Origin: an uncultured archaeon | GTDB taxonomy: Archaea > Iainarchaeota > Iainarchaeia > Iainarchaeales > GCA-2688035 | NCBI GenBank assembly: GCA_964354805.1 | Contig: CAYHBD010000016.1 | Span: 68,532-132,531, forward strand | Direction of reading: 5' to 3' | Length of the DNA stretch: 64,000 nt | Shown here: piece by piece, positions 11,690 through 64,000 of the stretch | Layout of the letters: every line of letters starts with the position of its first letter | Numbering within the stretch: position 1 is the stretch's first letter | The notes under the pieces: generated by a model | Told to the model about the DNA's origin: nothing | Seen by the model: only the letters and a program-made list of their open reading frames with translations | Database searches by the model: none | Translations under genes and position numbers: made by a program

Positions 11690-11716
11690 TGCAAACCACC
11701 ATTCTTTATCTAATTA

Positions 11717-12070: not shown

Positions 12071-12250
12071 AGATTTTACTCTCCGTTTTGATGTTAATTT
12101 ATTCTTTTTTCTGGTTAATAAATATTCCTTTTATGTTTTTTAACCTTTTGGGGCTGTTTCTTTTCTGTTTCTTTAACCCTTGCCGGCGTTTTCTGGTATT
12201 GCCCTTTTATTTCTCTTTTTTTTTGGGTTAATCCATGATTTTTTTGTTTC

Positions 12251-12388: not shown

Positions 12389-12436
12389 TTCATCCACCAA
12401 ACCTGTTATTTGCCCATTCACGCTTTTCCACGGCTT

Positions 12437-13384: not shown

Positions 13385-13417
13385 GCCCTTGTTTTGGATT
13401 TTTTTTAACCTCTTTTT

Positions 13418-14623: not shown

Positions 14624-14730
14624 TTACAAGGGCAGCAATCAATCCATCTGCATCCATTCAGCGCCCCTCCAATAAAAACATTTCAACACATTTTGAGCAA
14701 AAGATTCGGCAGCTGCTGTATCCAGCCATT

Positions 14731-35400: not shown

Positions 35401-36068
35401 TGCTTGCAAAAGCTGTTGCAACTGAAAGCGAGGCAAACTTTATTTCGATCAAGGGCCCGGAACTTTTGTCGCTTTGGGTTGGAGAATCGGAAAGAGGAGT
35501 TCGAAAGGTTTTCAGGAGAGCGCGGCAGGTTGCCCCCTGCATTGTTTTCTTTGACGAAATTGATTCAATTGCAGGCAGAAGAGGCATGGGCGCAGACAGC
35601 CATGTGACAGAAAGGGTTGTAAACCAGCTGCTTACAGAATTGGATGGAATTGAGCAGAACAGAAACGTTGTTTTTCTGGCTGCAACAAACAGGCCTGACC
35701 TGCTCGATCCTGGCCTGCTTAGGCCAGGCAGAATAGACAAGCTGATTAAGATTGATGCACCGGATGAAAAAGGCAGGCTTGCAATATTCAAGGTTCACAC
35801 AAAGAATGTCAGCCTTGCAAAGGATGTTTCTCTTGAAGAGCTTGCAAAGAAAACAGCCGGCTTCAGCGGAGCAGACATTGAAGGGCTTGTAAGGGAGGCA
35901 GCTTTGATTGCATTGAAGGAAAACAAGCTGGTTCCAAAGCCAGTTGAAAAAACTCACCTTGAGCAAGCGCTTGCGGAAGCGAAAGCAAGCATTTCCCCAA
36001 AGGTTGAAGAAGCATACGAAGAATTCGAAGAGCACCTCAGCGAATTCAAGCCGAGCTACGTTGGTTAG
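32412..36068 (+). CDS. cdc48: CDC48/VCP-like AAA+ ATPase (two AAA domains) interrupted by an intein in D1
   Basis: CDC48 N-domain. D1 Walker [16 protein letters not shown] and Walker [12 protein letters not shown]2 [15 protein letters not shown] and [10 protein letters not shown]. The conserved VIVIAATNRP is split as VIVIAA|S...HN|TNR. Confidence 0.92.
33381..34691 (+). mobile_element. Intein (437 aa) with LAGLIDADG homing-endonuclease domain, inserted at the sensor-1 ATN motif of CDC48 D1
   Basis: Block [11 protein letters not shown] (Ser1), block [20 protein letters not shown] motifs [11 protein letters not shown] and [12 protein letters not shown]-terminal FVYDLCG...ILLHN followed by the +1 Thr. 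Removing 33381-34691 restores [27 protein letters not shown]. Confidence 0.85.
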
Positions 36069-37443: not shown

Positions 37444-37776
37444 CTTTATTTCATGCCTCTGCATTAAGCCGTCAAAGAAAACGATTTCCGACGCAATGCC
37501 CGCCTTCCCCCCTTCTCCAACTGTTGTTTCAGTTCCGTCAAGAACGATTTTTCCGCTCACGCCGGGGAAAGCAAAGCGAAAATCCCCCTGCATTTGCCCT
37601 GCATTTAGACTGCTTCCCTGCATTTGCCAGATTGAAAGCAAATCGTTTTCCTTCTTGAAAACATGCAGGTCATTCAAATAACTGCTCTGCTGGGGCAAAG
37701 GAAAAGCAAGCAGCGATACAAGCAACGCCATTGACAGAATTGCCTCAGCGCTCAAATAAAAGCCCTTATTTTTCAC
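37414..37776 (-). CDS. Type IV pilin-like protein
   Basis: MKNKG/FYLSAEAILSMALLVSLLAF. Confidence 0.6.
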   Translation of the reverse strand: MKNKGFYLSAEAILSMALLVSLLAFPLPQQSSYLNDLHVFKKENDLLSIWQMQGSSLNAGQMQGDFRFAFPGVSGKIVLDGTETTVGEGGKAGIASEIVFFDGLMQRHEIKLVVFKQDSA

Positions 37777-38227
37777 ACACGCTCACCGCCACAAGCCCTT
37801 TCACGCCATTCAGCAAAACAAGCCTGTCCAAAGCAATACAGTTTTTGCCTGCAGGGCCCTCAAAAAAACCCTGTTCAATCCCAAACTCATCCTTAAAAGA
37901 AACCCTGCTGACAAAAAAGCCATCTTTCTCAAATTGCTCTGCCCTGCTGAGCAGAACGCTGTCCAAATTATTGCTCAAAACCCTGTGCTTCTCTGCATCA
38001 AACAAGGCGCTTCCAAGCAAGGGTTGCTCTGCATCATTGTTCTTAACCAGGCTGTCAGCCAAAAATATTGCGTTCCTCTGCAAATCAAATCTGTTGATTG
38101 ATTCAACCTGCTGGTCCTTCAAAACGCTGGCATGCATCAAAATCAGCAAAACCATCAACAGCATTGCAATAAAAGAAACCGCCAAATCAATAGAGAAAAT
38201 AAACCCACGTTCACCGGTAATGTTCAT
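37766..38227 (-). CDS. Type IV pilin-like protein
   Basis: MNITGERG/FIFSIDLAVSFIAMLLMVLLIL. Confidence 0.6.
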   Translation of the reverse strand: MNITGERGFIFSIDLAVSFIAMLLMVLLILMHASVLKDQQVESINRFDLQRNAIFLADSLVKNNDAEQPLLGSALFDAEKHRVLSNNLDSVLLSRAEQFEKDGFFVSRVSFKDEFGIEQGFFEGPAGKNCIALDRLVLLNGVKGLVAVSVCEK

Positions 38228-38615
38228 TTGGGGTTACCTCCAGCTTGTTGCCCTGCTCTCTTTCAACAGTCTTAAGCAGGGGCGCAATGCACTGCGTTTT
38301 CTTCATTTTTTCGCCTTCGCTGCTTTCAACCACGTTTTCATTTGCACTGCAAGGCATTGCAGGCAGCAATTCTTTCACATTGCCACTGTACAAAGCGTCT
38401 GCCCCAATGCAGCAAAACTCAGTGGCAGCTTTTGCCTTGAGTGCGGCAACGGCATCCTGCGCCTCTGTGTTCATGTTGTTCACGCTGTGCAGCATTATCG
38501 CCAACAGCGCGAGAAAAACGCAGAAGCAAGCAATTGCCTCAAGCTGTAACTGGCCTTTTTTGTTGATACAAAAAAGCCCAGGGAAAAATTGCTTCGCTTG
38601 GCCCCTTTTGTTCAT
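38211..38615 (-). CDS. Type IV pilin-like protein with extended leader containing a repeat element
   Basis: MNKRGQAKQFFPGLFCINKKG/QLQLEAIACFCVFLALLAIML. Confidence 0.6.
   Translation of the reverse strand: MNKRGQAKQFFPGLFCINKKGQLQLEAIACFCVFLALLAIMLHSVNNMNTEAQDAVAALKAKAATEFCCIGADALYSGNVKELLPAMPCSANENVVESSEGEKMKKTQCIAPLLKTVEREQGNKLEVTPNEHYR
38552..38597 (+). repeat. Two-hairpin repeat element, copy inside the pilin-gene 5' end (second hairpin degraded)
   Basis: GGCC-TTTTTTGT-tgat-ACAAAAAA-GCCCAGGGAAAAATT-GC-ttc-GC. Confidence 0.65.
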
Positions 38616-39175
38616 CCAACCACCGTTGCTTTGATGCTATATCCCGGTGGCAGCCTGAACACTGTTTTTGTGTTATCTCCCGCAATTTCCGCCTCAATAA
38701 AATTGTTCCGTTGCAGGCCGCCTGTGAAATCGTATTCAGCCAGAACGGTTTTGCCCTTAATGCTTACTATGAGCGCTGTGCTGTTGTTGTTCAGAAAATC
38801 TTCAAACTGCAAGCCATCGCTTGTAGTGAATTGCATTTTTGTCTCAGCATCATATCCCTTGAATTGCACTTTTATTTTAGAATTGTATTCTTTCTCAGTT
38901 TCCGCAAACAATAGCACCAACTTTCCGTTCACAAAAAGCTTTAATTCCTCTTGCGGAATGTTCAGCAATATTGCCTGCTGCAGGCTTTCCCTGACCATTG
39001 CATCTGTATTGTTTTCAATGACTGTTCTGATGAAACTGGCTTTTTCGGCTTCGAATGCAATCGTTTTCCCCTGCGCAAGAATTTTGTCAGCTTCAATGCT
39101 TTCGTTCAAAAAATTTGTTTCCAGCGCTATTGCTGAAAGCAGCAAAAGAAAGCAAAAAATGCCCTTGTTGTTCAT
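38612..39175 (-). CDS. Type IV pilin-like / pilus-associated protein
   Basis: MNNKG/IFCFLLLLSAIALE. First gene of the minus-strand pilin operon. Confidence 0.5.
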   Translation of the reverse strand: MNNKGIFCFLLLLSAIALETNFLNESIEADKILAQGKTIAFEAEKASFIRTVIENNTDAMVRESLQQAILLNIPQEELKLFVNGKLVLLFAETEKEYNSKIKVQFKGYDAETKMQFTTSDGLQFEDFLNNNSTALIVSIKGKTVLAEYDFTGGLQRNNFIEAEIAGDNTKTVFRLPPGYSIKATVVG

Positions 39176-39983: not shown

Positions 39984-40052
39984 TTCAGGCTGCACCCGAT
40001 ACAAAGGTATTTGCCTAAATTGCTTTAAATAGGTTTCATTTTTGTTAGGTAG

Positions 40053-40100
40053 AAGCCTTTTTGCTTCCGCAAAAAGCCTTGGGAAAAAGAGCCTTCGGCA
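40053..40100 (+). repeat. Two-hairpin repeat element, copy between the ArsR-like gene and the 585-aa secreted-protein gene
   Basis: AAGCC-TTTTTGC-ttcc-GCAAAAA-GCCTTGGGAAAAAGA-GCC-ttc-GGC. Confidence 0.7.
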
Positions 40101-40118
40101 GACCCTTGCACATTTCTT

Positions 40119-41876
40119 TTAGCATCCTGTTCCTGCTTTCCATTGCCTCATTTTCTGCATTAGTGTCAGCATGGTTATTTCTCCTTTTTTCCACTGCCCA
40201 ATAAAGCCCAGCAACTCTGGCTCCCTAATGCATTGTTGAGTGCAGTCTGTTGGGCATGTTTCAATTGTTTCGCCTGCATCGCAAGTGCCGTTGCCGCAGC
40301 AGACATTGTCTTCGTCTGTTAATCCATCAAAGTCGTTGTCTTTGCTGTCGCATACTTCTTCAAGAAACTTGATTGCGCTTAATTTTTCGTTGATTGCATA
40401 TTCAATGCTTGTATCAAAAACAATTGTGCCTCTTTGGTATTTTCTGTACCATGTGCTGCCTTCTTTGTGGGGCTCTTCTAAAGGCAATCCTAACTTGTAA
40501 CCATAAGTGAAGTAGTTAACCATTGGCTTGTCGTACTCGCTTGGATTGATGTAAATGTATGTGTTTTGGTTTCCAACTAAATGGGCAAAAAGCCAAATCT
40601 GGTAAGCTAGGGGGTTGTTGGCCTCTGCTTCGGAAAAGGTGCTTGCAACATAAAGTTGTTTTTTGTTGTTGTCGCCTAATCTTTTTGATTGGCGGTAATA
40701 AGCTTCAACATTGGCGTCTTGATTCCAGAAGCCGTTTTCAAACATTATCATGTCAAAACTATTTAAATTTTCTGTACTGCTGGTTAACCTATCCAAAAAT
40801 GCGGTTAGGGTTATTTCCAGGTTGCCTGAGTCGGTTACTGTCCTGAATCCGTTTAATATAAGGCGGGTATTAGGTTTTGCTGCCTTTATTTCCTTAGCAA
40901 TCAATATTACATTATCAATTAATTTGTTCCTCTGGTCGTCTATGCTTCCAGTGGAAATATACTTTCCAACATAATTAATCCAGTAGTCTGAGGGAATCCA
41001 ATTATCCAAGAAAACATCATCATTCCCATACCGTGCCTGTCTTATTAATACGTATTCTACTGCGTATTCCCTTACAACAGAGTTGCTAAAGTTAAAGAAC
41101 CATCTTCTTTCAGTTCCACCCCCACCTCTCCAATAAGTACATGCGGGCGTTTCATCGCACCCATATCCCCAAGGGTAAACAATAGTTTTCCCATTCCGGT
41201 AATCCTCGTCAGGGGAGTCTTTGAGAGGCTCGGTGTTGGTCTTGTTATCTTTCCAAATGGTATTCCCCCCAGAATCTGTTTGAACTCCATAACTGCATCC
41301 CCCTTCGCCAAACTCTTCTCTTTCTTGACACATTTTGTTTATATCTGCTCTTTGAATAATGTCTTTTCTAACTTTCCCGTCTCCATCGGCATCATATTTT
41401 GTGAATAGAGCATCTATGTCTGATTGATCAAGTGCAACCACATTAATTCGTTGTCGGTTTTCAGTGGCGGAAGGGTCGAAAAGGCTTTCTTTATCAAAAC
41501 TACCGTGTGGGTGAATGTTGGTTGTTGAAATATAATGAAAAAAATCTAAGCCATTGTATCCGTTTCCAATAGTAAATTCTGTTCCCTGGATTTGCTCGGC
41601 ATTTCCTTCGTAATACCTTATTTCGTAAAATTTTAGGATTTCATTGAAGTTTGTGTTCCCTAACTTGCTTCCGCAGTCGATCGCGCAGTTTTCGCTGTTT
41701 TCCCCTAATCCTGGTTCGCAGTTTTGGTTGCCGCATGCGTCCAGGGTTTCTTGCAGTTGGAGTGTGGAATGCTGTTCATTTTGTGGCGTTGTTGTTTCAG
41801 GTTGTTGGCTATGCGAATTTGAGTTTGCAAGCAACGCTATTGCAAGAATAATGATAATTATTGATTTATGTTTCAA
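40119..41876 (-). CDS. Secreted protein, TIM-barrel glycoside-hydrolase-like core, EF-hand-like loop, Cys-rich modules and shared C-terminal tag
   Basis: TTG start, signal peptide MKHKSIIIIILAIALLANS. CGNQNCEPGLGENSENCAIDC and CGNGTCDAGETIETCPTDC modules, YDADGDGKVRKD, and the tag GFIGQWKKGEITMLTLMQKMRQWKAGTGC. The hydrolase call is weak. Confidence 0.65.
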   Translation of the reverse strand: MKHKSIIIIILAIALLANSNSHSQQPETTTPQNEQHSTLQLQETLDACGNQNCEPGLGENSENCAIDCGSKLGNTNFNEILKFYEIRYYEGNAEQIQGTEFTIGNGYNGLDFFHYISTTNIHPHGSFDKESLFDPSATENRQRINVVALDQSDIDALFTKYDADGDGKVRKDIIQRADINKMCQEREEFGEGGCSYGVQTDSGGNTIWKDNKTNTEPLKDSPDEDYRNGKTIVYPWGYGCDETPACTYWRGGGGTERRWFFNFSNSVVREYAVEYVLIRQARYGNDDVFLDNWIPSDYWINYVGKYISTGSIDDQRNKLIDNVILIAKEIKAAKPNTRLILNGFRTVTDSGNLEITLTAFLDRLTSSTENLNSFDMIMFENGFWNQDANVEAYYRQSKRLGDNNKKQLYVASTFSEAEANNPLAYQIWLFAHLVGNQNTYIYINPSEYDKPMVNYFTYGYKLGLPLEEPHKEGSTWYRKYQRGTIVFDTSIEYAINEKLSAIKFLEEVCDSKDNDFDGLTDEDNVCCGNGTCDAGETIETCPTDCTQQCIREPELLGFIGQWKKGEITMLTLMQKMRQWKAGTGC

Positions 41877-41916
41877 TTTAAATCAATCAAATAAGTGCTT
41901 TCTTTAATAAAAATTT
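41877..41916 (-). promoter_or_regulatory. Conserved promoter/leader, copy A (TATA-like TTTTTATT at about -38 to -31 from the start codon)
   Basis: Gene-sense AAATTTTTATTAAAGAAAGCACTTATTTGATTGATTTAAA|TTG. Aligns with copies at 46636-46676, 57579-57619 and 62025-62064. Confidence 0.6.
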
Positions 41917-41986
41917 AATTGAGGGGGCTTGTGGCTGGCAAAAGCACAGCTGGCAGTGCAGTTGTGCCCTGCAATTAAGTATTTAT

Positions 41987-43884: not shown

Positions 43885-46635
43885 CTATGCCGGCAGGCAT
43901 CCTGTTCCTGCTTTCCATTGCTTCATTTTCTGCATTAGTGCGAGCATGCTTATTTCCCCTCTTTTCCACTGGGGAATGTACTGGTTCATTAATGTCGGCG
44001 TGTCAACGCATTCTGGTGTTTGAGCGCAGCCGCTTTTGTCAAGCGTGCATTGTGCCGTGCATCCAAGTGTTCCTCCAAAATACCCCAAAGAAACGCAGCT
44101 TTCTCCAAAAAGGGCTGTTCCATCGCATTGTTCTCCCAAATCATCATCAACGCCGCCGTTGCCGCATGCTGTATATGATTCGCAGCCGTCACTCAAATTG
44201 CCATTGCTGTTTTGGTATCCTTCAAAGCAGCCATCGAAATGGCAGCTTCCTGCAACACAGCTGCTGAAAGCGTGCGGGTAATAGCATACATTGCTACAGC
44301 TGCCGCAGTTGAATGGGTCATTCTGCAAATTAAATGGTTCGTCTATTGGTGTGCTCCAAGTTGCTGTTGAACTAGAGCTTGTCCAGTACCGCGCGTCTCC
44401 ATCATTGTCAGCGCCGTCGCATATTTCAATTCCTGGGTTGTCTTTTAGCGTGTTCCAGCTGTATTCTGCAGTGTTTACTACTCCACCAACATTGTTGTAG
44501 AATTCGTGGTCTATTATGCCAAGCGCGTTGTATTTGTTTGCAAGATATGACCACCATTTGATGGCTGTTTCATCATACCATGGTCCCCCAAAAAATTCAA
44601 AACCAAGGGTGTTGTAAAGGTTAGGGCCGTTTTCCATGTTTAGATACTGATTGTTTGTGGTATACCACCAATCGATTGGAACAACGTTTTCCCTTTTCAA
44701 TAAATCCAGCGCATGCCAGCTTTTTCCAGTTTGGCCGCCGTACATAGCCTGATATGATTCAACGCCGCCGTTGTGGAACGGGCTTATCATGTCATCCCAT
44801 ATAAGCACTTTTGTGTCTGCGTTGTAGCTGTGGATTATGTCAACCATTTTGTTCAAAAACTTTCCAAGCACCTGATAGTTCTCAAAGCCCCTTTTCTTTG
44901 ACCTGCTATCCCTGTTGAATCCCCTGATTTCATCCATTCCAATGAAAACAAAGTCAGGTTTCTTCTCCATTGTGCTTTTTATATTGTTTCTGTATTCATC
45001 AAGCACTGCAGGGTCTGAGAGGCTTGCATACTCATTTCTTGTTTGCTGGAAATTTACAATAAAGTCGTAGTCTATTGCAACCTCTGCACCGGGCAATATC
45101 CTGCCACCTTCAACTCTTTGAACAGTTGTTTTTTTTCCAGCCAGTGGGTTGCTGAAATTGAATTCCCCTGTTGTGCTCAACGTGTAGTCCGTGCCTTCGG
45201 TGTATTTCACTGTTCTATCCTTATTCCAAACCTGCAGCCCAGTATCTGGCGTCCTAATCACATTCCTTAGGGCTTTTGTCAGGTCAATTAATTCAAAGTC
45301 GTCAAGCCACCATGTTACTGGCTCGCAGAACATGGCCCTGCTGTAAATGGTAAATCCTGCCGCGCCATTAAAAGAAGTGAACATCAAAAAATATTGCTTC
45401 CACTCCCCGCTGTTATCCGTTATGTTGCCATTGTAGTATACACTTGCTCCCCCTATAATAAGAGTGTTCCCTGGCTCATCTTTCATAACAACAGTGAATT
45501 GCGGCTGCCTGTCATTGTTGTTTGGGTCGTTTTTTTTCGCCCAAAAAGTGAACATGTAAATCTTGTCTGACTCAATTGGGATCTGGCTTTCTGTCAGAAA
45601 ATAGCTGCTTGAATCAAGCCCCAATGTATGTTCAGCAACCATCTTTACAGAGCAGTTGCCTGAATGGCTTTGCGTGCAATCCCTTGTCCACTGTCCTCTC
45701 TGCTGCTCTATTGGATAGTTTGAATATTTCCAGCCATCCGGAACTCCGTCTCCATCTTCATCAAATTCCAAATCAGGGTTTGGCAGTTCAACCCCGCCTG
45801 CTGGCTCTGCAATGCCAGAGCTGTTGAACCTGAATGGGGCATTGTATGCCCACACACCTTCATGGAGGTTTTTTCCTTGTCCTTCTGCATATGGTGGCAA
45901 GCCCAGCTTTGTAGAAGTGAAGAAGTGCCTGTCCCTTACATACTCAGTCAGCGGGCCATTGATCCAAATATTGTATTTGTATTTGGCTAAGTGTTCAACC
46001 CAGGCTTCTTGTGTGCCGTAGTAGGGAGGCCAATCTTGTCTGCTGTAAGGGTCCCATATAGTGGGTTCAGTTCCTCCATAGAACCCCCTTATTTTTAAGT
46101 CAGGCCAGTCTGTTATTTTTGCATTTGGCAGAATTATGCTGCTGCCCTCTTTTTTCAGCAGCCAAGTGAGTGAAACAACGCCGTAGAATGTTCCTGCTGT
46201 CGTGTTCCCCAAAATTAGAATCTGGTTTGGCTGAATTATGAGAACATATCCTTGGTTGAATTTATCTTGTGTCAATTCGTTGTTTATGTTGATTCCTGCG
46301 CTGCTTGCGATTGCTGCTATTGCTGCATTTGTGTTCGGGTTTCCTATTACGATTCTTTTCTCTGCTGGCATTGCAGTTATGTCAACTATTCCAAGGCTAG
46401 TTCCCAATGCCGCGCTTATTTTTTTATTTAAGTCGGTTGCTGCAAAGCTGTCTTCTGTTGCCAGGTCAGCCGCAATTTTCCAGCTGCTGTCAATGCTTAC
46501 TGCTGTTGTTGAGAGAGTTTGAATGCTTTTTGGCTTTGGGATTATTGTTGCCGGGTCAATCGGCTGGGCATAGCTGGCTGTAGCCAAAAGCAACAGGAAA
46601 AATGCGATTGCAACAATTATTGTTTTTTGCTTCAA
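43885..46635 (-). CDS. Large secreted protein: GH20-like N-terminal/TIM region, CBM4/9-like module, Cys-rich region and shared C-terminal tag
   Basis: TTG start, signal peptide MKQKTIIVAIAFFLLLLATASYA. IIPKPKSIQ...DWPDLKIRGF resembles GH20. NPDLEFDEDGDGVPDGW is CBM-like. Tag QYIPQWKRGEISMLALMQKMKQWKAGTGCLPA. Confidence 0.7.
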   Translation of the reverse strand: MKQKTIIVAIAFFLLLLATASYAQPIDPATIIPKPKSIQTLSTTAVSIDSSWKIAADLATEDSFAATDLNKKISAALGTSLGIVDITAMPAEKRIVIGNPNTNAAIAAIASSAGININNELTQDKFNQGYVLIIQPNQILILGNTTAGTFYGVVSLTWLLKKEGSSIILPNAKITDWPDLKIRGFYGGTEPTIWDPYSRQDWPPYYGTQEAWVEHLAKYKYNIWINGPLTEYVRDRHFFTSTKLGLPPYAEGQGKNLHEGVWAYNAPFRFNSSGIAEPAGGVELPNPDLEFDEDGDGVPDGWKYSNYPIEQQRGQWTRDCTQSHSGNCSVKMVAEHTLGLDSSSYFLTESQIPIESDKIYMFTFWAKKNDPNNNDRQPQFTVVMKDEPGNTLIIGGASVYYNGNITDNSGEWKQYFLMFTSFNGAAGFTIYSRAMFCEPVTWWLDDFELIDLTKALRNVIRTPDTGLQVWNKDRTVKYTEGTDYTLSTTGEFNFSNPLAGKKTTVQRVEGGRILPGAEVAIDYDFIVNFQQTRNEYASLSDPAVLDEYRNNIKSTMEKKPDFVFIGMDEIRGFNRDSRSKKRGFENYQVLGKFLNKMVDIIHSYNADTKVLIWDDMISPFHNGGVESYQAMYGGQTGKSWHALDLLKRENVVPIDWWYTTNNQYLNMENGPNLYNTLGFEFFGGPWYDETAIKWWSYLANKYNALGIIDHEFYNNVGGVVNTAEYSWNTLKDNPGIEICDGADNDGDARYWTSSSSTATWSTPIDEPFNLQNDPFNCGSCSNVCYYPHAFSSCVAGSCHFDGCFEGYQNSNGNLSDGCESYTACGNGGVDDDLGEQCDGTALFGESCVSLGYFGGTLGCTAQCTLDKSGCAQTPECVDTPTLMNQYIPQWKRGEISMLALMQKMKQWKAGTGCLPA

Positions 46636-46676
46636 TTTGAATCAATTAGAATAAGTGCTTCATTCAATAAAAATTT
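46636..46676 (-). promoter_or_regulatory. Conserved promoter/leader, copy B
   Basis: Gene-sense AAATTTTTATTGAATGAAGCACTTATTCTAATTGATTCAAA|TTG. Confidence 0.6.
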
Positions 46677-46713
46677 AATCCTTTATTTAATTACATTTAT
46701 TCACAGGATTTTT

Positions 46714-47884: not shown

Positions 47885-48925
47885 GTGGCTAAAAAGGGTG
47901 CTGGGAAAAAGTCTGCCAAAAAAGGCAGGGCTGGGAAGAGGGCAAAGCCAGCCGCTGTTTCTAAAGTAGTTAAACGGGACATTAAGTCCTTGCAAAAAGG
48001 GTTGAAGAAAGAGATTTCCCTGACAAAAAAGGTCAGCAGGAAAGCAGGCAAGCAGGAGAACCAGCTTGATTTGCTTGCAAAAGAGATTGAAAAGCTTAAG
48101 AAGAAAAAGAAGAGGTCTGCCCTCTCTGAATACAACAAGTTCATGAGACAGCAGATAAGGAAAGGGCTTTCTTTCAGGCAGGCTGTAAGGGAGTGGAACA
48201 AGAGGAAAAAGGCGCTTGCAAAAAAGACCAAGAAACCAACAGCATACAACGTGTTTGTTTCAATGCAGTTAAAGCAAGGCAAAACAATGAAGCAGGCTAT
48301 CGCAGCATGGAACAGGCTGAAGAATCCTGCCAAGAGAAAAAGACCGGCAGGAAAAAAGTTTGCGGTTGCAAAGCCAAAAGCAAAGGCACTAAAAAAGAGG
48401 CCTGCAAAGAGAAAGGCAGCAAAGCCGAGAAAAAAGCCAGTGAAGAGGAAGGCAGCAAAGCCAAGGAAAAAGAGGGTTGTGAGGCGCAGAAGGCCTGTTA
48501 AGAGGCGGATTGTGAAGCCCAAGAGAAAGATGGTTTTAAGGCGGAAGCTGCCTGTTGTAAAGCCAAAGCGCATTGTGCGCAGGGTTACTGTTGAAAAGCC
48601 GGTTATTTTGACAAAACAAGTTTTCCCCAAAGAAGAGATTGTACTGCTTATTGAGAAAGCGATTGAAAAGCTTTCATCGGCAGAAAAGCGGGTTGTTGTA
48701 GAATCAAGGGCAATTTCAGCCCAAAAGGGCGAACTACTTTGCGATGAAGAGGTTGCGCTCAGAATGCTCAATGTTTATTTCTCTGAGATAGCGAGGTATG
48801 GCCTGAAAAGGAAGCTTACTCTTGATGAAGTGATTAACGCCTACTTTTATGCATTGCTGCGGATTGAGAGAAAGGGCATTGAAATCAATGAAATAAAGGA
48901 AGCAATGCTCAGGAAAGGAATGTAG
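47885..48925 (+). CDS. Lys/Arg-rich putative DNA-binding protein with two HMG/YABBY-like helical repeats and a C-terminal domain duplicated in the next gene
   Basis: GTG start. Repeats SEYNKFMRQQIRKGLSFRQAVREWNKRK and TAYNVFVSMQLKQGKTMKQAIAAWNRLK. KRKAAKPRKKPV occurs twice. C-terminal domain EEVALRMLNVYFSEIARYGLKRKLTLDEVINAYFYALLRI. Confidence 0.55.
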   Translation: MAKKGAGKKSAKKGRAGKRAKPAAVSKVVKRDIKSLQKGLKKEISLTKKVSRKAGKQENQLDLLAKEIEKLKKKKKRSALSEYNKFMRQQIRKGLSFRQAVREWNKRKKALAKKTKKPTAYNVFVSMQLKQGKTMKQAIAAWNRLKNPAKRKRPAGKKFAVAKPKAKALKKRPAKRKAAKPRKKPVKRKAAKPRKKRVVRRRRPVKRRIVKPKRKMVLRRKLPVVKPKRIVRRVTVEKPVILTKQVFPKEEIVLLIEKAIEKLSSAEKRVVVESRAISAQKGELLCDEEVALRMLNVYFSEIARYGLKRKLTLDEVINAYFYALLRIERKGIEINEIKEAMLRKGM

Positions 48926-50908: not shown

Positions 50909-52177
50909 ATGGGTGTTGAGGAGTTAGACTTTGATTTATTCGAATTGCATGATCCAAAAGACGACAAAAAGCCGTATTTTTGGACGAAAATTGGAGGCAA
51001 AGAGATTCAATCACTATTCGAAGATTTAGTTAATAATATTTGTAAAACAAAAAATGTGAATAAAAATGAGCTGGCTAAAGAATTAAGCAAAGAGCTGGGT
51101 TGCTGTGTTTCACTTTTGCAAAAATATTTTTATTCCAAAAGGGATCTTTATCCAATCCCTTTAATCAACCGATTACTAGACCTGCTTGAGAATGAAAATA
51201 AAAAAATGCAAATGAAAAGTTTATTTTCTAAAAAGATTGAATACTTAAAGATCGGGGGCTCTAGCCAAAGACAAAGGGCGGTTAAATATTTGACGCCAGA
51301 ACAGGCAAAACTTTGCGGAGCAATTGTTGCCGATGGGTGTTTAGTAAAATCTAAAGTTGGAGAGCACGGGATTGTCATTAGGGATTATTACAAGAAAGCA
51401 TTAGCAAAGACAAACGCTTGGTTCAACCAAGCCCTTGGCATTTCTTCTGTTGTGAGAAAGGACAAAGGGAAACCAAGCCATTTTCTAAAAATCGATAACA
51501 AAATTGCTGCAAATTTTTTTAACAAATTTTTTGAGATACCATTTGGAAAAAAATCAGCAATTGTTAAGGAACCACAGATAATTAAACATTCCCCATACAG
51601 GCTAGACTTTGCAGAAGGGGCACTTCTGTTTGATGGAAGTGTTGAGTTGGACTACCTGGTTTCCTATGGGACAATCAGTAAAAAGTTAGCAGAAGATTTG
51701 CTCGAAATTCTAACCCTAAATGGCTTTGAAATTGAATTAAGATATTTCAAAACAACTGGTCTGTATAGATTACGAACTAAAAGATTAACAAGGGAGCAAA
51801 CAGACAAATGGATTGCCTTTTTTGGCAAAGACACTGAGAAAGGCAGTAAGCTTTATCAAATGACTTACGGCTTTCCAAATAGGGTGGGCTCTGTGGGTTA
51901 TTTCATGTTTGCAATTTCAAATTTCTGCAATTTTGCAAACAGTTCAAAGATTTCAATTAAAGACGTCTTCGCCGCAATAAAAGAAAATAATTGCGTAACA
52001 AAGGCGACTTTGAAAGATATTCTAAGAATTGGAACAAGCACTCTTTACAAATATTTATGGATCCTAGAAAAAACAAACTCAATCAAAGCTGAAAAATTTA
52101 ATGGCGGTGAAAATAGAGAAAACAAATATTCTTACAATCCAAATATTTGGGAATGGCGTGCGCCATCAAAGCTTTAA
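50909..52177 (+). CDS. Free-standing HTH-LAGLIDADG-wHTH protein, paralog of 19641-20978
   Basis: LAGLIDADG-like motifs LCGAIVADGCL and AEGALLFDGSV. N-terminal HTH-like NKNELAKELSKELGCCVSLLQKYF. C-terminal wHTH-like ATLKDILRIGTSTLYKYLWILEK. Confidence 0.5.
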   Translation: MGVEELDFDLFELHDPKDDKKPYFWTKIGGKEIQSLFEDLVNNICKTKNVNKNELAKELSKELGCCVSLLQKYFYSKRDLYPIPLINRLLDLLENENKKMQMKSLFSKKIEYLKIGGSSQRQRAVKYLTPEQAKLCGAIVADGCLVKSKVGEHGIVIRDYYKKALAKTNAWFNQALGISSVVRKDKGKPSHFLKIDNKIAANFFNKFFEIPFGKKSAIVKEPQIIKHSPYRLDFAEGALLFDGSVELDYLVSYGTISKKLAEDLLEILTLNGFEIELRYFKTTGLYRLRTKRLTREQTDKWIAFFGKDTEKGSKLYQMTYGFPNRVGSVGYFMFAISNFCNFANSSKISIKDVFAAIKENNCVTKATLKDILRIGTSTLYKYLWILEKTNSIKAEKFNGGENRENKYSYNPNIWEWRAPSKL

Positions 52178-55295: not shown

Positions 55296-57584
55296 CTATG
55301 CTGGCGTTGAGCATCCGTCCCCCGTGTTCCGTTGCCTTATTTTTTGCATTAATGCAAGCATGCTTATTTCTCCTCTTTTCCACTGGCTGATATATCCCAA
55401 CAGTTTTTCGTTGTCAACGCATTCTGTTATTGCCGTGTTTGTGCAGTCTGCTGCGCATGTTTCAGCGCTTTCTCCAAGCTCTGGTTCACATGTTCCGTTG
55501 CTGTTGCAAAAATTTAGTGGATTTGGGTCTTCTCCGTCCCTAATTCCATCCTTGTCTGAATCTGGGTAAAAAACATCAGTCCCAATTGCAGTTTCTTCCG
55601 TGTCTAAAAGCCCGTCGCTGTCCGAATCCGTGATGCCTGTTTTGTTTTTTCCCAAAAACTTGGCTATGCCGTATACATTGGACCTGAACGTGTTTGTGCT
55701 TATCACTTTTCTATTCACCCCGCTTAAATCGTAGTCTTCTTTCCAAAAGCCCGTTTGCGCATCAGGGGCATAGTCTCTTAGGTATGCATCAATCCCTTTG
55801 TTCACCCCATAGCCCCATGCAATGCCCTCAATATCCCAATAGCCCCTTGTTTCGGCATAAGGTTTGCTTAAATCAAGGCAGCCGGAGTAATTTGCAGGGG
55901 ACGTGCTGTCAAGGCAGGCATCTGAAATCATAAATTTGTATATGTATCCATCACCGTGATCTTGTAAGCCGTAAGATGGAATTGGGGTCACAAATTCGCC
56001 GTTTGCTTCCTCATCTATCAGGTAGTAGTTGAATCCGGCAAACCCGTACAGGCAGAGGTAGGGCTCCTCAGGGTAATAATAGTTGCAGGAAAATACCGGG
56101 TCGTTTGGATTAATTGTTGCATTTCCGCTTGGAGTGGTTGTAGTGTCATAGCTTCCTGTGGTATAGAATGTGAAAATATTTCCAGCTCCCTTTGGGTCAG
56201 GGCGCTCGTCATATGTGATGACCCTGTCTATGTAGTAGAGTGAATCCTCCAAAGCCTTTCTTATATTATCGCTGGTTGTTCCCGTTTCCTCCATTTTCTT
56301 CTCAATAAATCCCATTCTCCTAATTAGCTCAAGGCTTTCCCGCACGGCAAAGGCAGGCGGTTCAAACGGCCTTGCCGGCGTGCATTTGTCGTCCAATGCA
56401 TGGTACTGCTGGCACCAGCTCCTGTTTCCATACTCTTGGAAGACATCGGTAAGCCAGTTTAGCTGGAGATTTAAATTATTCAATGCCGAGCTGTTGCCTG
56501 TGACCTCGTAATAGCGCCATAAAAACGGCAATAGGTTTGATATGGTGCTGTCGTTTATCGGCTTGTGCAACAAATAGCCGGCAACCAGCGACCCATATCC
56601 TTGGCCTCCTGTTACTAGCCTGCTCTTGCTGCCTGCCATTAGGGGGATTCCGCCGTTTGCATAAGGCTTGAATGCCTGCCCGTTTTTGAGAGGGTGTTCC
56701 GGCGGAAGGCTGCTGATATATGCTTTGAAAGGGTGCAACCCGCTCTTGCCAGACCAGCCAACAGTGATGTCAAAATAGCTTGCCCTTATTTCAAAATCGT
56801 TTCTGTATGCTTCCACCAGATTAAAAAATTTTGTTGCCCCATCCAAAAAATCTGTTCTGTCAATTCCTTCCAATGGGTCAACAACTCCCGAAGAAAAATC
56901 AAGGTCTTTTGTTGAATCATACAACTCCAGCAAAAAAATCGCAGCTTTGGTGCTGATGCTGTCGTCAAAAGCCACCCATGCGTCTTCCCTGGATAAAAGC
57001 CCGGCAAAGTCTATATCCCCCTGCTCTTTCGGAGTTTTTATTTTGGGCAGTGCCCAGTGGCCGATTTCATTTTGGATTTTGGCGTTGCTTCTGGTCTCAG
57101 GGTTATCTGGAATTATGAATGCATAATCAATAAGGCCCCCGCTCTCAAGCTGTGGCTTTTGCGATCCGTCTTTTGGATTTGTTTCCAAGTCTTTTTGAAT
57201 TGACAACAGCGTTTTTCCGGCTTCAATCGCATACTCCAAATATAATTTGTTTCCCGTGTTTTCGTATGCCCGCAGAAAAGCCAGCCCTGCCCCGGGGATG
57301 CCTGGTTCCATAATAGAAACAAGGGGCTGGTTTGCTGCAACACTGTCGTCAACCCCCCACATTGGTTTTGAAGGGTCGTCCACTGTTTTTACCATTGGGA
57401 AGCCAACATAAGTATTGCCATCTGCGTGTTCAAACCTGCCGCCGCTTTCCCAAAAGGACTGGATAGCGGAATCGAGGTTGTCCAGCAAAATTTGGTTGTT
57501 TGAAGCTTGAGCGCCAGCTGCCCCAAGCAAAAGCGTTAGCAGAAAAGCAATTGCAATAATCTCCCCGTGGTGTTTCATTTTCAT
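55296..57584 (-). CDS. Large secreted protein: alpha/alpha-toroid-like polysaccharide-active core (weak call), TSP3-type Ca-binding repeats, Cys-rich module and shared C-terminal tag
   Basis: Signal peptide ...IIAIAFLLTLLLGAAGAQA. DSDSDGLLDTEE...DSDKDGIRDGEDPNP, CNSNGTCEPELGESAETCAADC, and tag GYISQWKRGEISMLALMQKIRQRNTGDGCSTPA. Alignment of the leaders favours the second ATG (57578) as the start. Confidence 0.7.
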   Translation of the reverse strand: MKMKHHGEIIAIAFLLTLLLGAAGAQASNNQILLDNLDSAIQSFWESGGRFEHADGNTYVGFPMVKTVDDPSKPMWGVDDSVAANQPLVSIMEPGIPGAGLAFLRAYENTGNKLYLEYAIEAGKTLLSIQKDLETNPKDGSQKPQLESGGLIDYAFIIPDNPETRSNAKIQNEIGHWALPKIKTPKEQGDIDFAGLLSREDAWVAFDDSISTKAAIFLLELYDSTKDLDFSSGVVDPLEGIDRTDFLDGATKFFNLVEAYRNDFEIRASYFDITVGWSGKSGLHPFKAYISSLPPEHPLKNGQAFKPYANGGIPLMAGSKSRLVTGGQGYGSLVAGYLLHKPINDSTISNLLPFLWRYYEVTGNSSALNNLNLQLNWLTDVFQEYGNRSWCQQYHALDDKCTPARPFEPPAFAVRESLELIRRMGFIEKKMEETGTTSDNIRKALEDSLYYIDRVITYDERPDPKGAGNIFTFYTTGSYDTTTTPSGNATINPNDPVFSCNYYYPEEPYLCLYGFAGFNYYLIDEEANGEFVTPIPSYGLQDHGDGYIYKFMISDACLDSTSPANYSGCLDLSKPYAETRGYWDIEGIAWGYGVNKGIDAYLRDYAPDAQTGFWKEDYDLSGVNRKVISTNTFRSNVYGIAKFLGKNKTGITDSDSDGLLDTEETAIGTDVFYPDSDKDGIRDGEDPNPLNFCNSNGTCEPELGESAETCAADCTNTAITECVDNEKLLGYISQWKRGEISMLALMQKIRQRNTGDGCSTPA

Positions 57585-57619
57585 TCAATTAGAATAAGCA
57601 CTTTGTTTAATAAAAATTT
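57579..57619 (-). promoter_or_regulatory. Conserved promoter/leader, copy C
   Basis: Gene-sense AAATTTTTATTAAACAAAGTGCTTATTCTAATTGAATGAAA|ATG. Confidence 0.6.
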
Positions 57620-57639
57620 TGTTGTCGCCCAAAAGCGCT

Positions 57640-59287: not shown

Positions 59288-60283
59288 TCACTCAACCCTT
59301 CCTTTTTGAAATTCTTTTTTGCATAGCGGGCATTTGTAGCGCCGATATTTTCTATTCTCTTGCTTTGTAAAACCGTTTCTCCAAACTTTTTTGTGTCCAC
59401 AATGAATGCAGGGAATATCTATTGTGCCCAAATTTTTCTTTTTTAAAAGTTTTTTCTCATCATTACTCTTTTCATATTTTATAATGCGTAATTTAGCCTC
59501 CCGCTTTTCTTCATGTTTAGAAAAAGGCAATAATGTGTCTGCTAACTTTACAATATCCTTATGGTTCGTCATCATAACCCGGTATAAGTCAAAGTTGCAC
59601 TTCCGTGTCCCATAAACGCCTTTTTTTCTAACCAAATAAAGATGCGAGTTAAACCCAAGCCCTTTTAGTTTTTGATTAATCTGTTCCAAAATTGTTTTAT
59701 CACAGGTGCCCAGACTAAAAACAAGATCTTTCCATTTCCCGCCGTATTTCTTATGTTCGGTTATTATCCAGCTGGCTTCACTGTCACAGTACCCCGCTAA
59801 AAACGAGTAGAATGCCCCTTCGTCATTTAAGATCCAATCCGGAATTGATTTTGGTTTTTCTATTAAAAAGTCAAATGAAGGGTGCAGATAACAATTTATT
59901 TTTCGGCTTTTCTCGGTAAAGCCCCCCTTTGCCTCGTATTCATTGACATGAGAATATTTTTCAAAGGCATCTCTAAACATTTGCATTTGCGCTTTTTTTG
60001 GGGATGTAGTGCAGGCAACTACTAACCTGCAGTGTTTTTGGGCACTAACATCACCGGTTCTTAATCCAATTAAATATGCTTTTTCAATTAAGTTTCCGTC
60101 GAATGTGTGTCTTGTGAGATTTTTTCTGTCAGACGGTCGCCTAGCCACCTTGAATCGTTCCATATGGTAGGCAATACTCCCTTTGGATTTCATGCCGTAC
60201 ATTTTTGCAATCTTGAAAAGGGAAAGTTCTTTTTTCCAATACAAATCCTCCAACACTTCTTTTGATATTTCTTCTCTATTCAT
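59288..60283 (-). CDS. Free-standing LAGLIDADG homing-endonuclease-like protein with N-terminal HTH and C-terminal zinc ribbon
   Basis: Motifs AYLIGLRTGDVSA and FLAGYCDSEASW. C-terminal CIHCGHKKV...YKCPLCKKEF. SD GGTGGGAG lies 4 nt before the ATG. The stop lies 1 nt before the pheT ATG. Confidence 0.6.
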   Translation of the reverse strand: MNREEISKEVLEDLYWKKELSLFKIAKMYGMKSKGSIAYHMERFKVARRPSDRKNLTRHTFDGNLIEKAYLIGLRTGDVSAQKHCRLVVACTTSPKKAQMQMFRDAFEKYSHVNEYEAKGGFTEKSRKINCYLHPSFDFLIEKPKSIPDWILNDEGAFYSFLAGYCDSEASWIITEHKKYGGKWKDLVFSLGTCDKTILEQINQKLKGLGFNSHLYLVRKKGVYGTRKCNFDLYRVMMTNHKDIVKLADTLLPFSKHEEKREAKLRIIKYEKSNDEKKLLKKKNLGTIDIPCIHCGHKKVWRNGFTKQENRKYRRYKCPLCKKEFQKGRVE

Positions 60284-61949: not shown

Positions 61950-62024
61950 TTTGAACCACTTTTTGATAATTGAATATTATAAGAACATTAAAACCATTTT
62001 TTAATATTTGCAATGCAAGTGGTT

Positions 62025-62064
62025 AAGTTTTTATTCAGGGAATTGCTTATTGTAATTGATTGAA
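62025..62064 (+). promoter_or_regulatory. Conserved promoter/leader, copy D
   Basis: AAGTTTTTATTCAGGGAATTGCTTATTGTAATTGATTGAA|ATG. Confidence 0.55.
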
Positions 62065-64000
62065 ATGAAGCATCTGCTTGTGTTTCTGTTAATTGCAATG
62101 CTGTTTATTACCGCTGCTACTGCTGCGCAAAGCTGCGTAGCAGCCCCTGGCGCGGAAAACCTTATAGTTAACGGGGATTTGGAATTGGGCAGCGGTGATG
62201 TCCCCGAGTGCTGGTATAAAACTGGTGATGACTCAATTAATAATATCTTGTTGTGGGTTGCTGACCCCTTTTCAGAAGGCCATGGGAAGGTTCTTTATTC
62301 TGAATTCACTGGAGTTGGGGTGAAAACCTCTTTTCGCTGGTATCAGGTTGTTGAAGGGCTAGAACCAAACACTTGGTATGAGCTATCAGCAGACATGGCC
62401 TTTAAGGATATGGTTCCGCTCATAGACCTTAACCAAGAGATGGATGAAGATTCTGTTGCTGTTGGAATAGCTGGGGCCACCTTTGGGAAGCTACGATACC
62501 CGCTTTATATTATGGGGTTAGAATATGGTGAATGGGATGAAGACGTTTGGGTTTACAGAACCTACAAAGAGAAAAGCCAGGGCTGGGCAAAACTAACGAC
62601 GTATTTTAAAACGGATGAAGGCGTGGACAGAATGACCATAAGGACACTCAACTATCCAAAAGGAAAATTATACGTTGACAATCTTGTCCTAAAAAAGGCT
62701 GGAGAAAGGAATTCGTTCAAGAAATCAGGCACGTTGGAATTTTTAAAATACAAGGGCAAGGATTTTTTTCCAATTGTTCTCCGGGATTATCCGGTGGACG
62801 CAGCCGGGACGCCTTTATCATTAAGTGAAATAAAAGCAGCAGGGTTTAACACTGTTAATGCACTAGGCTATCCATCAATAAAAGAAGCATCACTTGAAAA
62901 CAATCTGGTTCTAATGATGCAGCTTAATGAGTTTCTATATAAGGAGGGCGACTCTCTAGATAGACAGTCTTGGGTTTATGACCCAAGCCATTCAATAAAT
63001 TACCAGGGGGCAAGGATAATTAAAGAGCGTATTGATAAATGGGGTAACGTTGAAAACGTTGAAAACTTTTTATTCTTTGCCGGCATGGATGAAATTACAT
63101 GCAAACCAGTGAGAAGGGGGGCACTCTTGCCCCAACTGGAGTCATTTAAAAAAATAAAAGAATACATAGGTGCCAATGCCCCCGGAAAATACATTAGATA
63201 CAACTTTTGCGGAAATTACTCCCCCTACACTGGCATAGCCCAACACTTTGCCGATTATTATTTTCCAACAATGGATATTGTGACCTTTAATCAAAACATG
63301 CCTCAAGCATACCCTCAAACAGAAAAACCAAGAGAACTGGGAAAAGGGGGGGAAATCGCGAGATTGCTATTAGACCTATCTTACACATCAGGTGCCCCAA
63401 AAAACATTTTTGCCGTTGCCTTGGGCGTGCGCGAATGGTCTACCTGGGACGGCGTTCATGACTCTGACAACCCTTATATTGGAAAACTTCCATTTAATTT
63501 GCAAAGATTTCAAGTTTGGGACCAGATAATAAACGGGGCAACTGGATTAATAGTCCTTAATTTTGGAGACAATCAATATTATGATTACAGAATAAACTTA
63601 GACAAGCCTCTTGACGATTACCACTGGCAGCAAATCAAAACCATCTCAAAAGAAGCAGCCGCCCTTTACGACGTTCTCCTGGAAAAAGATTTCTACAATG
63701 AATGGCAGGCAAGCGATAACAGAATAGAAGCAATGATGAAGAAGCATGCTGGCAAAATCTATCTTTTCACTGCAAGCACGCACTATGAAGACATTCACGA
63801 TGTAATAATCACTCTCAATAGTCAGTACACAATAAAATCAGTGAAAGCACTCAATGACATAATCAACGGAGACATAACAAACCCAATTGATAGACCAATT
63901 ACACCAGCAACAGCAAACAGTTTTGTCGACGACTTTGTTGGGGACGACGGCTCGCATGCATCTGCAGTAAGCCCTGGATATGCTGTGCACATTTACGAGA
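62065..64000 (+). CDS. Secreted CBM-plus-glycoside-hydrolase-like protein; 3' end runs off the window (not in the ORF track)
   Basis: Own translation: MKHLLVFLLIAMLFITAATAAQS (signal peptide), NLIVNGDLELGSGDVPECWY (CBM4/9/22-like start), then a long alpha/beta region. The frame is open to base 64000. Confidence 0.65.
   Translation, partial: MKHLLVFLLIAMLFITAATAAQSCVAAPGAENLIVNGDLELGSGDVPECWYKTGDDSINNILLWVADPFSEGHGKVLYSEFTGVGVKTSFRWYQVVEGLEPNTWYELSADMAFKDMVPLIDLNQEMDEDSVAVGIAGATFGKLRYPLYIMGLEYGEWDEDVWVYRTYKEKSQGWAKLTTYFKTDEGVDRMTIRTLNYPKGKLYVDNLVLKKAGERNSFKKSGTLEFLKYKGKDFFPIVLRDYPVDAAGTPLSLSEIKAAGFNTVNALGYPSIKEASLENNLVLMMQLNEFLYKEGDSLDRQSWVYDPSHSINYQGARIIKERIDKWGNVENVENFLFFAGMDEITCKPVRRGALLPQLESFKKIKEYIGANAPGKYIRYNFCGNYSPYTGIAQHFADYYFPTMDIVTFNQNMPQAYPQTEKPRELGKGGEIARLLLDLSYTSGAPKNIFAVALGVREWSTWDGVHDSDNPYIGKLPFNLQRFQVWDQIINGATGLIVLNFGDNQYYDYRINLDKPLDDYHWQQIKTISKEAAALYDVLLEKDFYNEWQASDNRIEAMMKKHAGKIYLFTASTHYEDIHDVIITLNSQYTIKSVKALNDIINGDITNPIDRPITPATANSFVDDFVGDDGSHASAVSPGYAVHIYE

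Follow-up and report, generated by a model that had tools for sequence, protein, structure and literature searches.

Why should secreted proteins whose bodies have nothing in common end in almost the same 37 or 38 residues? The question is raised by a stretch of 64,000 nucleotides from an uncultured archaeon of the Iainarchaeota (assembly GCA_964354805.1, contig CAYHBD010000016.1, positions 68,532 to 132,531; hereafter the window, in which all coordinates are given unless another locus is named). In an earlier note on this DNA, three large exoprotein genes were reported to share a near-identical C-terminal tag, which is the subject of this study. The genomes of DPANN archaea are tiny, and little is understood of the biology of their cell surface; to our knowledge, the means by which such cells keep hold of their secreted enzymes or bind to partners are largely unknown. 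We describe the tag as an unannotated, calcium-free, Cys-bounded derivative of the EF-hand/dockerin loop–helix duplication, and we weigh its putative role as a docking module at the cell surface as well as its history of exchange between genes.

Three unrelated exoproteins with a common C-terminus

All three genes lie on the minus strand and encode proteins with Sec-type signal peptides (MKHKSIIIIILAIALLANSNSHS, MKQKTIIVAIAFFLLLLATASYA and MKMKHHGEIIAIAFLLTLLLGAAGAQA in the order of the genes). According to Pfam, gene 1 (40119-41876, 585 aa) has a GHL15-like body, gene 2 (43885-46635, 916 aa) a Glyco_hydro_20b N-domain together with a weak CBM_4_9 match, and gene 3 (55296-57584, 762 aa) a weak pectate-lyase-like match. 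Genes 1 and 2 start with TTG (41874-41876 and 46633-46635, respectively), at the exact position which ATG occupies in the aligned leaders of other family members, and the same leader alignment favours the second ATG of gene 3, at 57578, as its probable true start.

The three proteins end in ...QWKKGEITMLTLMQKMRQWKAGTGC (gene 1), ...QWKRGEISMLALMQKMKQWKAGTGCLPA (gene 2) and ...QWKRGEISMLALMQKIRQRNTGDGCSTPA (gene 3), each followed by the stop codon. Within these ends the tag core is CIREPELLGFIGQWKKGEITMLTLMQKMRQWKAGTGC in gene 1 (37 aa, 40122..40232, minus strand, with the stop codon at 40119-40121 directly behind it), CVDTPTLMNQYIPQWKRGEISMLALMQKMKQWKAGTGC in gene 2 (38 aa, 43897..44010, minus, followed by LPA and the stop codon at 43885-43896) and CVDNEKLLGYISQWKRGEISMLALMQKIRQRNTGDGC in gene 3 (37 aa, 55311..55421, minus, followed by STPA and the stop codon at 55296-55310), and in a six-frame scan the profile described below matches them at E 1.8e-23, 2e-24 and 1e-21, respectively. 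They share the pattern C(V/I)xxxxLxxYIxQWKxGEIxMLxLMQKxxxWKxGxGC, with gene 3 representing a distinct distal subtype, 'QRNTG' (distal end QRNTGDGC). Among the three proteins, significant BLASTP similarity is confined to the C-terminal 55-84 residues (E 1e-13 to 7e-20), and the sole other match between proteins is a short one in a Cys module (E 7e-5), from which we conclude that the three bodies are unrelated; the bodies that Pfam assigns differ as well. The translations and C-terminal tags were confirmed as the earlier note had written them, and so was its statement that the catalytic bodies do not align.

The six-frame profile scan yielded no further tag copies in the window, and a search for vestigial tag fragments inside it found none. 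The tagged proteins are the only large Sec-type secreted proteins of the window, since the other open reading frames (ORFs) with hydrophobic N-termini are pilin-like or encode membrane proteins. A fourth exoprotein gene (gene 4, plus strand, 62065..64000) is truncated at the end of the window, some 7 residues short of the position at which a tag is expected. Its product is 50% identical to the tagged protein P0026 over residues 1-676 of 722, and the fragment ends with ...PGYAVHIYE, the motif from which P0026 continues with IELSAQ (IELSAQECVDTPTLMNQYIPQWK...) and then the tag. Since the tag follows this motif in the orthologue, gene 4 probably carries it just beyond the window end, as judged from this alignment. 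One unannotated module would thus mark essentially every large secreted protein of the region (three and one probable in 64 kb), and it offers a handle for defining the exoproteome and for finding a receptor or scaffold.

The tag as a protein domain family

A HMMER profile built from five tag sequences and searched against 1.84 billion representative proteins matched 167 clusters at E<=1e-3, of which 50 also pass E<=1e-10, and a scan of JGI metagenome contigs added 13 more tag loci. A scan of GTDB species-representative genomes found nothing, and a word-indexed protein search with short tag profiles returned short fragments only, in 2 and 11 proteins. The closest named matches are 'Candidatus Diapherotrites archaeon' and 'Candidatus Iainarchaeum sp.'. 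Whether full proteins or isolated tags were scanned, neither Pfam nor NCBIfam had a family that covers the tag, and we found no description of the module in the published literature that was searched; about 170 protein clusters that are now called 'hypothetical' can be annotated by means of it. As a side observation, contigs L020 and L021 from ENA, which carry P0083 and represent a branch of the family on Glug-motif proteins (...GCIDTSTLINYIGQWKRGDISMSALMNYVMIWKYGWGC), show bacterial-looking neighbourhoods with genes for a cold-shock protein, DUF2934, DUF5670 and GH106, according to which the module may not be confined to archaea.

The family consensus reads C-(V/I)-D-x3-L-x2-Y-I-x-Q-W-K-x-G-x-(I/L)-x-M-x2-L-M-x-K-I-x2-W-K-x-G-x-G-C. 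Half 1 and half 2 of the module align with each other in hhalign without a gap (probability 97.7%, E 2.5e-12, 16/17 columns), so that the module can be considered a tandem duplication of a 17-residue loop–helix unit, x-(V/I)-x4-L-(L/M)-x2-I-x2-W-K-x-G. In P0086 the two halves are still near-identical (DMPALLGYIGDWKxGT twice). The flanking Cys pair is present in 135 of 153 members, with most exceptions having a Cys shifted by a few residues. P0043 (loci L011 and L012) has lost both Cys together, which suggests that the two pair with each other, and they probably form a disulfide.

Fold and descent of the module

For the window tag of gene 2, AlphaFold2 and the family alignment place two helices at residues 16-29 and 34-45 of the 53-residue query, with a core pLDDT above 90, and the AlphaFold2 model of an EF-type subfamily is a two-helix hairpin too (mean pLDDT 88.9). 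The prediction of two short helices ending in a Cys, made in the earlier note, is in agreement with these models, and no hydrophobic stretch that could form a transmembrane (TM) helix is present. We consider this structural description of the module well supported. A succession of loop–helix and loop–helix without entering helices is the layout of dockerins, also called 'F-hand'.

An origin of this layout is suggested by distant members, which read ADT(N/S)xDGKIxMxELxxYIxxWKxGxVxMxxLxxAIxxWKAGxGC. The consensus of this subfamily, ADTxxDGxIxMxELxxYIxxWKxG, has a canonical EF-hand/dockerin-type DxDxDG loop before helix 1, and the 12-residue EF-hand loop D-x-[DN]-x-[DN]-G-x-[ILV]-x-x-x-E with its helix is present in it and absent from the window copies. 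The subfamily matches EF-hand_5 at E 5e-5 and Dockerin_1 at E 0.025 (15.2 bits, for the best member), all below the Pfam cut-offs. When its profile is run against the PDB, proteins of the calmodulin type are matched along the loop and the first part of the helix, at E about 1e-7. In the window copies the acidic loop is lost (CVDTPTL..., KRGEISML...) and a Cys stands at loop position 7, while the second loop (WKRGEISML) is degenerate in all members. From these similarities the tag appears to descend from an EF-hand/dockerin-type ('F-hand') calcium-binding motif, whose loop would have been swapped for a Cys staple in the window copies. The family would then allow an EF-hand/dockerin-type motif to be seen evolving into a calcium-free, disulfide-stapled form.

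Dockerin type I (PF00404) binds cohesin and occurs in proteins of bacteria and archaea, both cellulosomal and non-cellulosomal. Like the tag, it is a small, non-catalytic and usually C-terminal module on secreted carbohydrate-active enzymes, it is borne by many different enzymes of one genome and it consists of a tandem duplication of a loop–helix unit, as the hhalign comparison of the tag halves indicates for the module; the DxNxDGxIxxxE-L loop of distant tag members adds to the likeness. However, the tag has about 38 aa and two helices, whereas dockerins have about 60-70 aa and three helices, it has one canonical loop at most, and no Ca2+ ligands in the window copies, in contrast to the two loops of dockerins, and its signature consists of two flanking Cys and two W-K-x-G turns. 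The window tags stay below the PF00404 gathering threshold of 22.9 bits, with no match even at E<=10. By size, helix number, thresholds and the fold search reported below, the module would not be classed as a dockerin. The match of the distant subfamily to EF-hands (Pfam EF-hand_1/5/6) covers the loop and the exiting helix, but the module has no entering (E) helix and a single canonical loop in part of the family only; moreover, its carriers are extracellular, and no binding of Ca2+ is predicted for the window copies.

A proposed role in docking or retention at the cell surface

A signal-peptide-like N-terminus is found in 81 of the 106 family members of at least 300 aa, and the other 25 look like truncated gene calls. 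The carrier bodies are of extracellular types, either carbohydrate-active or adhesin-like; among 75 family members scanned with Pfam they include Beta_helix (25) and Laminin_G_3 (12), with NosD, PKD and GHL15 in addition, and 16 of the 75 carriers match the NCBIfam 'choice-of-anchor Q', a name given to domains that are found with alternative C-terminal anchors. Four homologues of the GHL15 body carry other elements in the place of the tag: a C-terminal TM helix with a basic tail in P0158, a (sub-threshold) domain resembling FlgD_ig/Por_Secre_tail in P0162, a hydrophobic Leu-rich helix in P0161 and another EF-like two-helix variant in P0160. Because GHL15-body homologues have a TM anchor or a tail like that of the type IX secretion system (T9SS) in this position, we infer surface retention or docking, and we hold with moderate confidence that the tag may be a non-catalytic docking or retention module at the cell surface, by analogy with these anchors. 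A dockerin-like or surface-anchoring role had been among the candidates of the earlier note, and it is the best-supported reading, given the EF-hand/dockerin-type loop in distant members and the anchors in the same slot.

We propose a model in which the tag is appended to Sec-secreted proteins of glycoside-hydrolase, lyase and lectin type in a Diapherotrites/Iainarchaeota-like DPANN archaeon, the encoded plan being promoter/leader, signal peptide, variable body, Cys-rich spacer and tag. By protein–protein (or protein–envelope) binding, the tag would keep the exoenzymes attached to the envelope of the cell or to a scaffold protein, a retention comparable to that exerted elsewhere by dockerins, SLH domains, T9SS C-terminal domains (CTDs) and TM anchors.

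Several points weigh against this proposal. The argument from the anchor slot is based on four homologues of one body, and no binding partner was found; the scanned ORFs of the window include neither a cohesin nor any other candidate scaffold. The window tags match no curated family and have no acidic Ca-binding loop, and the analogy to dockerins would depend on the distant relatives, not on the window copies. The whole-family profile gives nothing against PDB sequences (a chance match to CdvA has E 0.35), and Foldseek searches of both AlphaFold2 models against the PDB return generic helix-hairpins at E>2 and no dockerin, a test of the dockerin fold that has low power for so small a domain. 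The putative disulfide, finally, is deduced from the conservation of the Cys.

A different function is conceivable from the position of the module. In 142 of 153 sequences it forms the extreme C-terminus, and its last Cys is followed by just 0-5 residues. The tag could be a dedicated sorting or export signal that is read, and maybe cleaved or modified at the terminal Cys, as in archaeosortase/PGF-CTERM systems or T9SS CTDs. Its presence on apparently every large Sec-secreted protein of the window and the T9SS-like tail of homologous bodies elsewhere would fit this explanation. The strongest argument against it is the position of the complete module in 10 of the 153 sequences, which lies directly after the signal peptide, at the mature N-terminus (one further copy is internal). 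Since these ten members exist, the module must be self-contained and does not need a C-terminus, and the secretion or sorting tag considered in the earlier note, taken as a strictly C-terminal element, is not supported. Furthermore, no TM helix, basic tail or conserved cleavage motif is present, the hairpin is predicted to be well folded with a conserved hydrophobic core, and no candidate processing enzyme is encoded nearby in the window; we therefore regard a sorting signal as unlikely.

The tag fills the same slot at the end of the enzyme as known surface-sorting and anchor domains (PGF-CTERM, Por_Secre_tail, TM anchors), but unlike these domains it can also sit N-terminally. In contrast to PGF-CTERM it has no TM helix or basic tail, ends with GC or GC(P/L/S)xxA and has no NCBIfam match, which bears out the earlier statement that neither PGF-CTERM nor another archaeosortase-type signal is present. 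The T9SS CTD (PF18962) is a beta-sandwich of about 75-80 residues, whereas the tag is helical, has about 38 aa and gives no Pfam match. We know of no cognate sortase-like enzyme for the tag. Prenylation of the C-terminal Cys in the manner of a CaaX box was rejected; in many members no residue follows the Cys, and the proteins are located outside the cell.

Two further explanations are rivals of the docking module. The helices are short, amphipathic and rich in Met, Leu and Trp with an internal two-fold pseudo-symmetry, the module occurs at either terminus, and many different enzymes of one genome bear it, all of which would suit a self-association domain, in which the hairpins of two or more enzymes pack into a helical bundle and so create multi-enzyme complexes without a scaffold. 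However, all 11 conserved hydrophobic positions can be buried in one hairpin, as deduced from the helical pattern, and AlphaFold2 models the monomer confidently, which makes self-association quite unlikely. Alternatively, the module could bind a small ligand or an envelope polymer, such as a metal ion, an acidic glycan or lipid head-groups, via its two W-K-x-G turns. Among the surface-exposed positions, W23/K24/G26 and W40/K41/G43 are the best conserved, a loop of the Ca2+ type is present in distant members and the carriers are carbohydrate-active enzymes, but the window copies are devoid of the acidic loop and no similarity to a known carbohydrate-binding module (CBM), SLH or LysM domain was found. 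We consider this explanation distinctly improbable and keep docking or retention by protein–protein (or protein–envelope) contacts as the preferred reading.

DNA identity between the tag copies

The tag is conserved not only as a peptide. In a recount, 40122-40196 and 43897-43971 differ by 6 mismatches in 75 nt and 55311-55385 differs from the other two copies by 15 and 14, so that the hand counts of 6 and about 14 in the earlier note are reproduced. Its further observation that the last 45 nt or so are almost identical is valid for the pair of 40119 and 43885 (2 mismatches) but does not extend to the 55296 copy, against which 12 sites differ there and which is near-identical to the others in its first 30 nt instead (2-3 mismatches). 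At identical residues other than Met and Trp, identical codons are used in 14 of 16 cases, compared to 6.9 expected from the codon usage of the window (p about 2e-4), and in 10/14 and 11/16 cases for the other two tag pairs (p about 0.02 each); the common codons include the rare ATA and CTA. This excess of identical codons places the similarity of the tag DNA beyond chance and codon bias.

For comparison, we used a syntenic relative of the window, the 216-kb JGI contig Ga0373628_0000033, of which region L016 was compared. Identical-codon fractions of 80-95% are typical along a whole orthologous gene between the window and this relative, and the tag DNA is therefore under no special synonymous constraint. 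It is as young as the split of the two genomes, whereas the bodies of the paralogues are unrelated.

The excess of identical codons, including ATA and CTA, could also mean that what is conserved is chiefly the nucleic acid, as a 3' mRNA element or as a recombination site, and that the peptide is incidental; homology that runs past the stop codon in tandem arrays and breakpoints located at the tag (see below) would agree with this. Yet the protein is conserved across 167 clusters down to about 35% identity, in a strict pattern of hydrophobic residues, Trp and Cys, while synonymous and conservative changes are numerous. When the three tag regions were folded as RNA, neither a stable nor a common structure emerged (z = +1.3, -0.4, -1.6), so that the extra constraint at the RNA level that the earlier note had considered is not supported and was rejected, and Rfam and tRNA scans of the window found nothing. 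As primary function, a nucleic-acid feature is largely refuted and, in our view, extremely improbable.

Recombination and gene turnover

We conclude that the high nucleotide identity of the tags results from recombination and recent common DNA ancestry, and we regard this recombination history as well supported. The relative carries eight tagged genes within about 43 kb, and its orthologue of the 40119 protein is P0003 (79% aa identity). The tags group by subtype and not by genome, and all four combinations of the proximal blocks TPTLMNQ/NEKLVGD with the distal blocks QWKAG/QRNTG exist (among them P0008 and P0012). One result weighs against recombination: a PHI-type permutation test on 20 tag DNAs showed no spatial recombination signal (p = 0.63), though 47% of the site pairs are incompatible. 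Because this test is not significant, the claim rests on the block mosaics, on scars and on an indel breakpoint.

The putative scars are out-of-frame vestigial copies of the distal half of the tag directly after the stop codon, which we observed in L018 behind two genes (about 6625-6710 and about 12170-12216), in L013 behind one (about 1812-1855) and in L005 as two tandem copies (downstream of 1086); one of them reads, for example, SMLTLMQKIRQRNTGTGCPPPA followed by a stop codon. They look like scars of unequal recombination. Where tagged genes stand in tandem, homology from one gene pair to another, and from genome to genome, extends over the whole junction of about 250 nt, which leads from the distal tag and its stop codon through an A-rich spacer to the promoter, the leader and the signal peptide.

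The breakpoint was located by a three-way DNA alignment and synteny at 40005..40145 (minus strand; relative L016 11590-14990). The 3' end of gene 40119 follows its orthologue P0003 up to ...GGAACAGGATGC, and from the stop codon on (TAAAAGAAATG...) it agrees with the relative's next tagged gene (1007 aa), both in the end of that gene and in the sequence downstream of it. This 1007-aa gene is absent from the window. The two genomes thus differ here by the loss or gain of a whole gene, with a breakpoint that falls in the final codons of the tag. Conversely, the relative has no gene 43885 in its syntenic interval between Cdc6 and endonuclease IV. The supposition of the earlier note, gene conversion or an exchange of cassettes, is backed by the vestigial tag ends, the homologous junctions and the whole-gene indel with its breakpoint in the tag. 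In the proposed mechanism, the tags together with the promoter/leader of the next gene would act as direct repeats for homologous or unequal recombination, at which genes would be gained, lost and re-tailed. The conserved junctions provide a concrete example, open to testing, of how recombination can drive modular turnover of genes in an archaeon that has not been cultivated.

Cassette-like families of surface proteins, such as the variable lipoprotein loci of mycoplasmas, may be comparable in their conserved promoter, leader, signal peptide and 3' end, in non-homologous bodies, in tandem arrays and recombination scars, and in presence/absence polymorphism. The system described here differs from them in that its bodies are enzymes of unrelated folds and not repeats of one antigen, and in that no invertible promoter or site-specific recombinase was seen.

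A common putative promoter/leader

The genes share not only their 3' end but also a putative promoter/leader of 49 nt, AATTAAATTTTTATTAAAGAAAGCACTTATTTGATTGATTTAAA plus start codon, which lies at 41872..41920 (gene 1, minus), 46632..46680 (gene 2, minus), 57575..57623 (gene 3, minus) and 62021..62069 (gene 4, plus). Its consensus is AATTAAATTTTTATTAAAGAAAGCACTTATTCTAATTGATTGAA, then ATG or TTG, then AA(A/G)CA, with a TATA-like TTTTTATT being followed by AAAGAAAGCACTTATTCTAATTGATTGAA and the start codon. When up to 14 mismatches are allowed, these four sites are the only ones in 64 kb, compared to zero in 20 shuffles, and the element is also found upstream of tagged genes in L016, L018, L001 and L013. 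This distribution suggests a dedicated regulon. Owing to the common promoter/leader, we view the tagged genes as jointly regulated, each with a variable body enclosed by a 5' and a 3' shell that are conserved.

Taking tag and promoter/leader together, a more far-reaching model can be formulated, which we put forward tentatively and hold to be rather doubtful as a whole. In this model, the two elements would define a recombination-driven 'exoenzyme cassette' system of Iainarchaeota-like DPANN archaea, in which any enzyme body inserted between a conserved 5' unit of promoter, leader and signal peptide and a conserved 3' unit of Cys spacer and tag is co-regulated, secreted and docked on the cell's own or a host envelope by a hitherto unknown, cohesin-independent, disulfide-stapled mini-dockerin, with the tags serving as crossover sites.

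Cysteine-rich modules preceding the tags

According to the earlier note, each tag is preceded by a module of the type CGNGxC(D/E)xGExxExCxxDC. A module CGNGxCxxGExxxxCxxDC is indeed present in 40119 and 55296, where an acidic mini-module with four Cys stands upstream of the tag (CCGNGTCDAGETIETCPTDC, 40242..40301, minus strand, directly upstream in gene 1; CNSNGTCEPELGESAETCAADC, 55443..55508, minus, in gene 3), but not for 43885, where the tag is preceded by a longer and different Cys-rich repeat (CGNGGVDDDLGEQCDGTALFGESC...C...C...C, 44026..44166, minus). This stretch, which reads CGNGGVDDDLGEQCDG...C...C...C, resembles the myxococcal-type cysteine-rich acidic repeat of some family members. 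A second copy of the mini-module (ACGNQNCEPGLGENSENCAIDC, 41673-41738, minus) forms residues 47-68 of the 40119 protein, at its mature N-terminus, and it is this copy that produces the BLASTP match to the 55296 module mentioned above. The four-Cys acidic mini-module is a mobile unit separate from the tag. We additionally observed it at the mature N-terminus of the GHL15 homologues P0158 and P0159.

Among the 75 family members, the curated models of cysteine-rich acidic repeats TIGR02232 (myxo_disulf_rpt), NF033662 (acidic double-disulfide repeat) and PF13948 match 6, 2 and 1, respectively, and DUF4215 also matches among a few other tagged proteins. The Cys modules of the window, scanned alone and within the full proteins, gave no match to TIGR02232, NF033662 or PF13948.

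Further features of the window

The gene content of the window is archaeal, with Nre, small and large RFC subunits, a pyruvoyl arginine decarboxylase, Cdc6/Orc1, PheRS alpha and beta and a topoisomerase. A type IV pilus/archaellum-like assembly locus at 9975-16500 (minus strand) encodes a protein with a class III signal peptide, an A24 prepilin peptidase that has the archaeal C-terminal domain, a T2SSE ATPase and two proteins resembling T2SSF. Further small ORFs of pilin type are clustered at 37766-39175 (minus), beside a helix-turn-helix regulator which in turn adjoins gene 40119.

The Cdc48/VCP-type AAA ATPase at 32412-36068 (plus strand) has 1218 aa, compared to 781 aa in the syntenic relative. 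Its extra residues, about 437, interrupt the first AAA domain and, judged by eye, have the appearance of an intein with a homing-endonuclease-like insert. Three ORFs of 331-445 aa, with no Pfam match for those that were scanned, are scattered between housekeeping genes (19641-20978, minus; 50909-52177, plus; 59288-60283, minus), the first two of which have similar N-termini (...DLF(E/T)LHDP...); the three may be paralogous selfish or homing-endonuclease-like genes. Downstream of Cdc6, an ORF at 47885-48925 (plus) encodes an extremely Lys/Arg/Ala-rich protein of 346 aa with no Pfam match, which may be a chromatin or nucleic-acid-binding protein.

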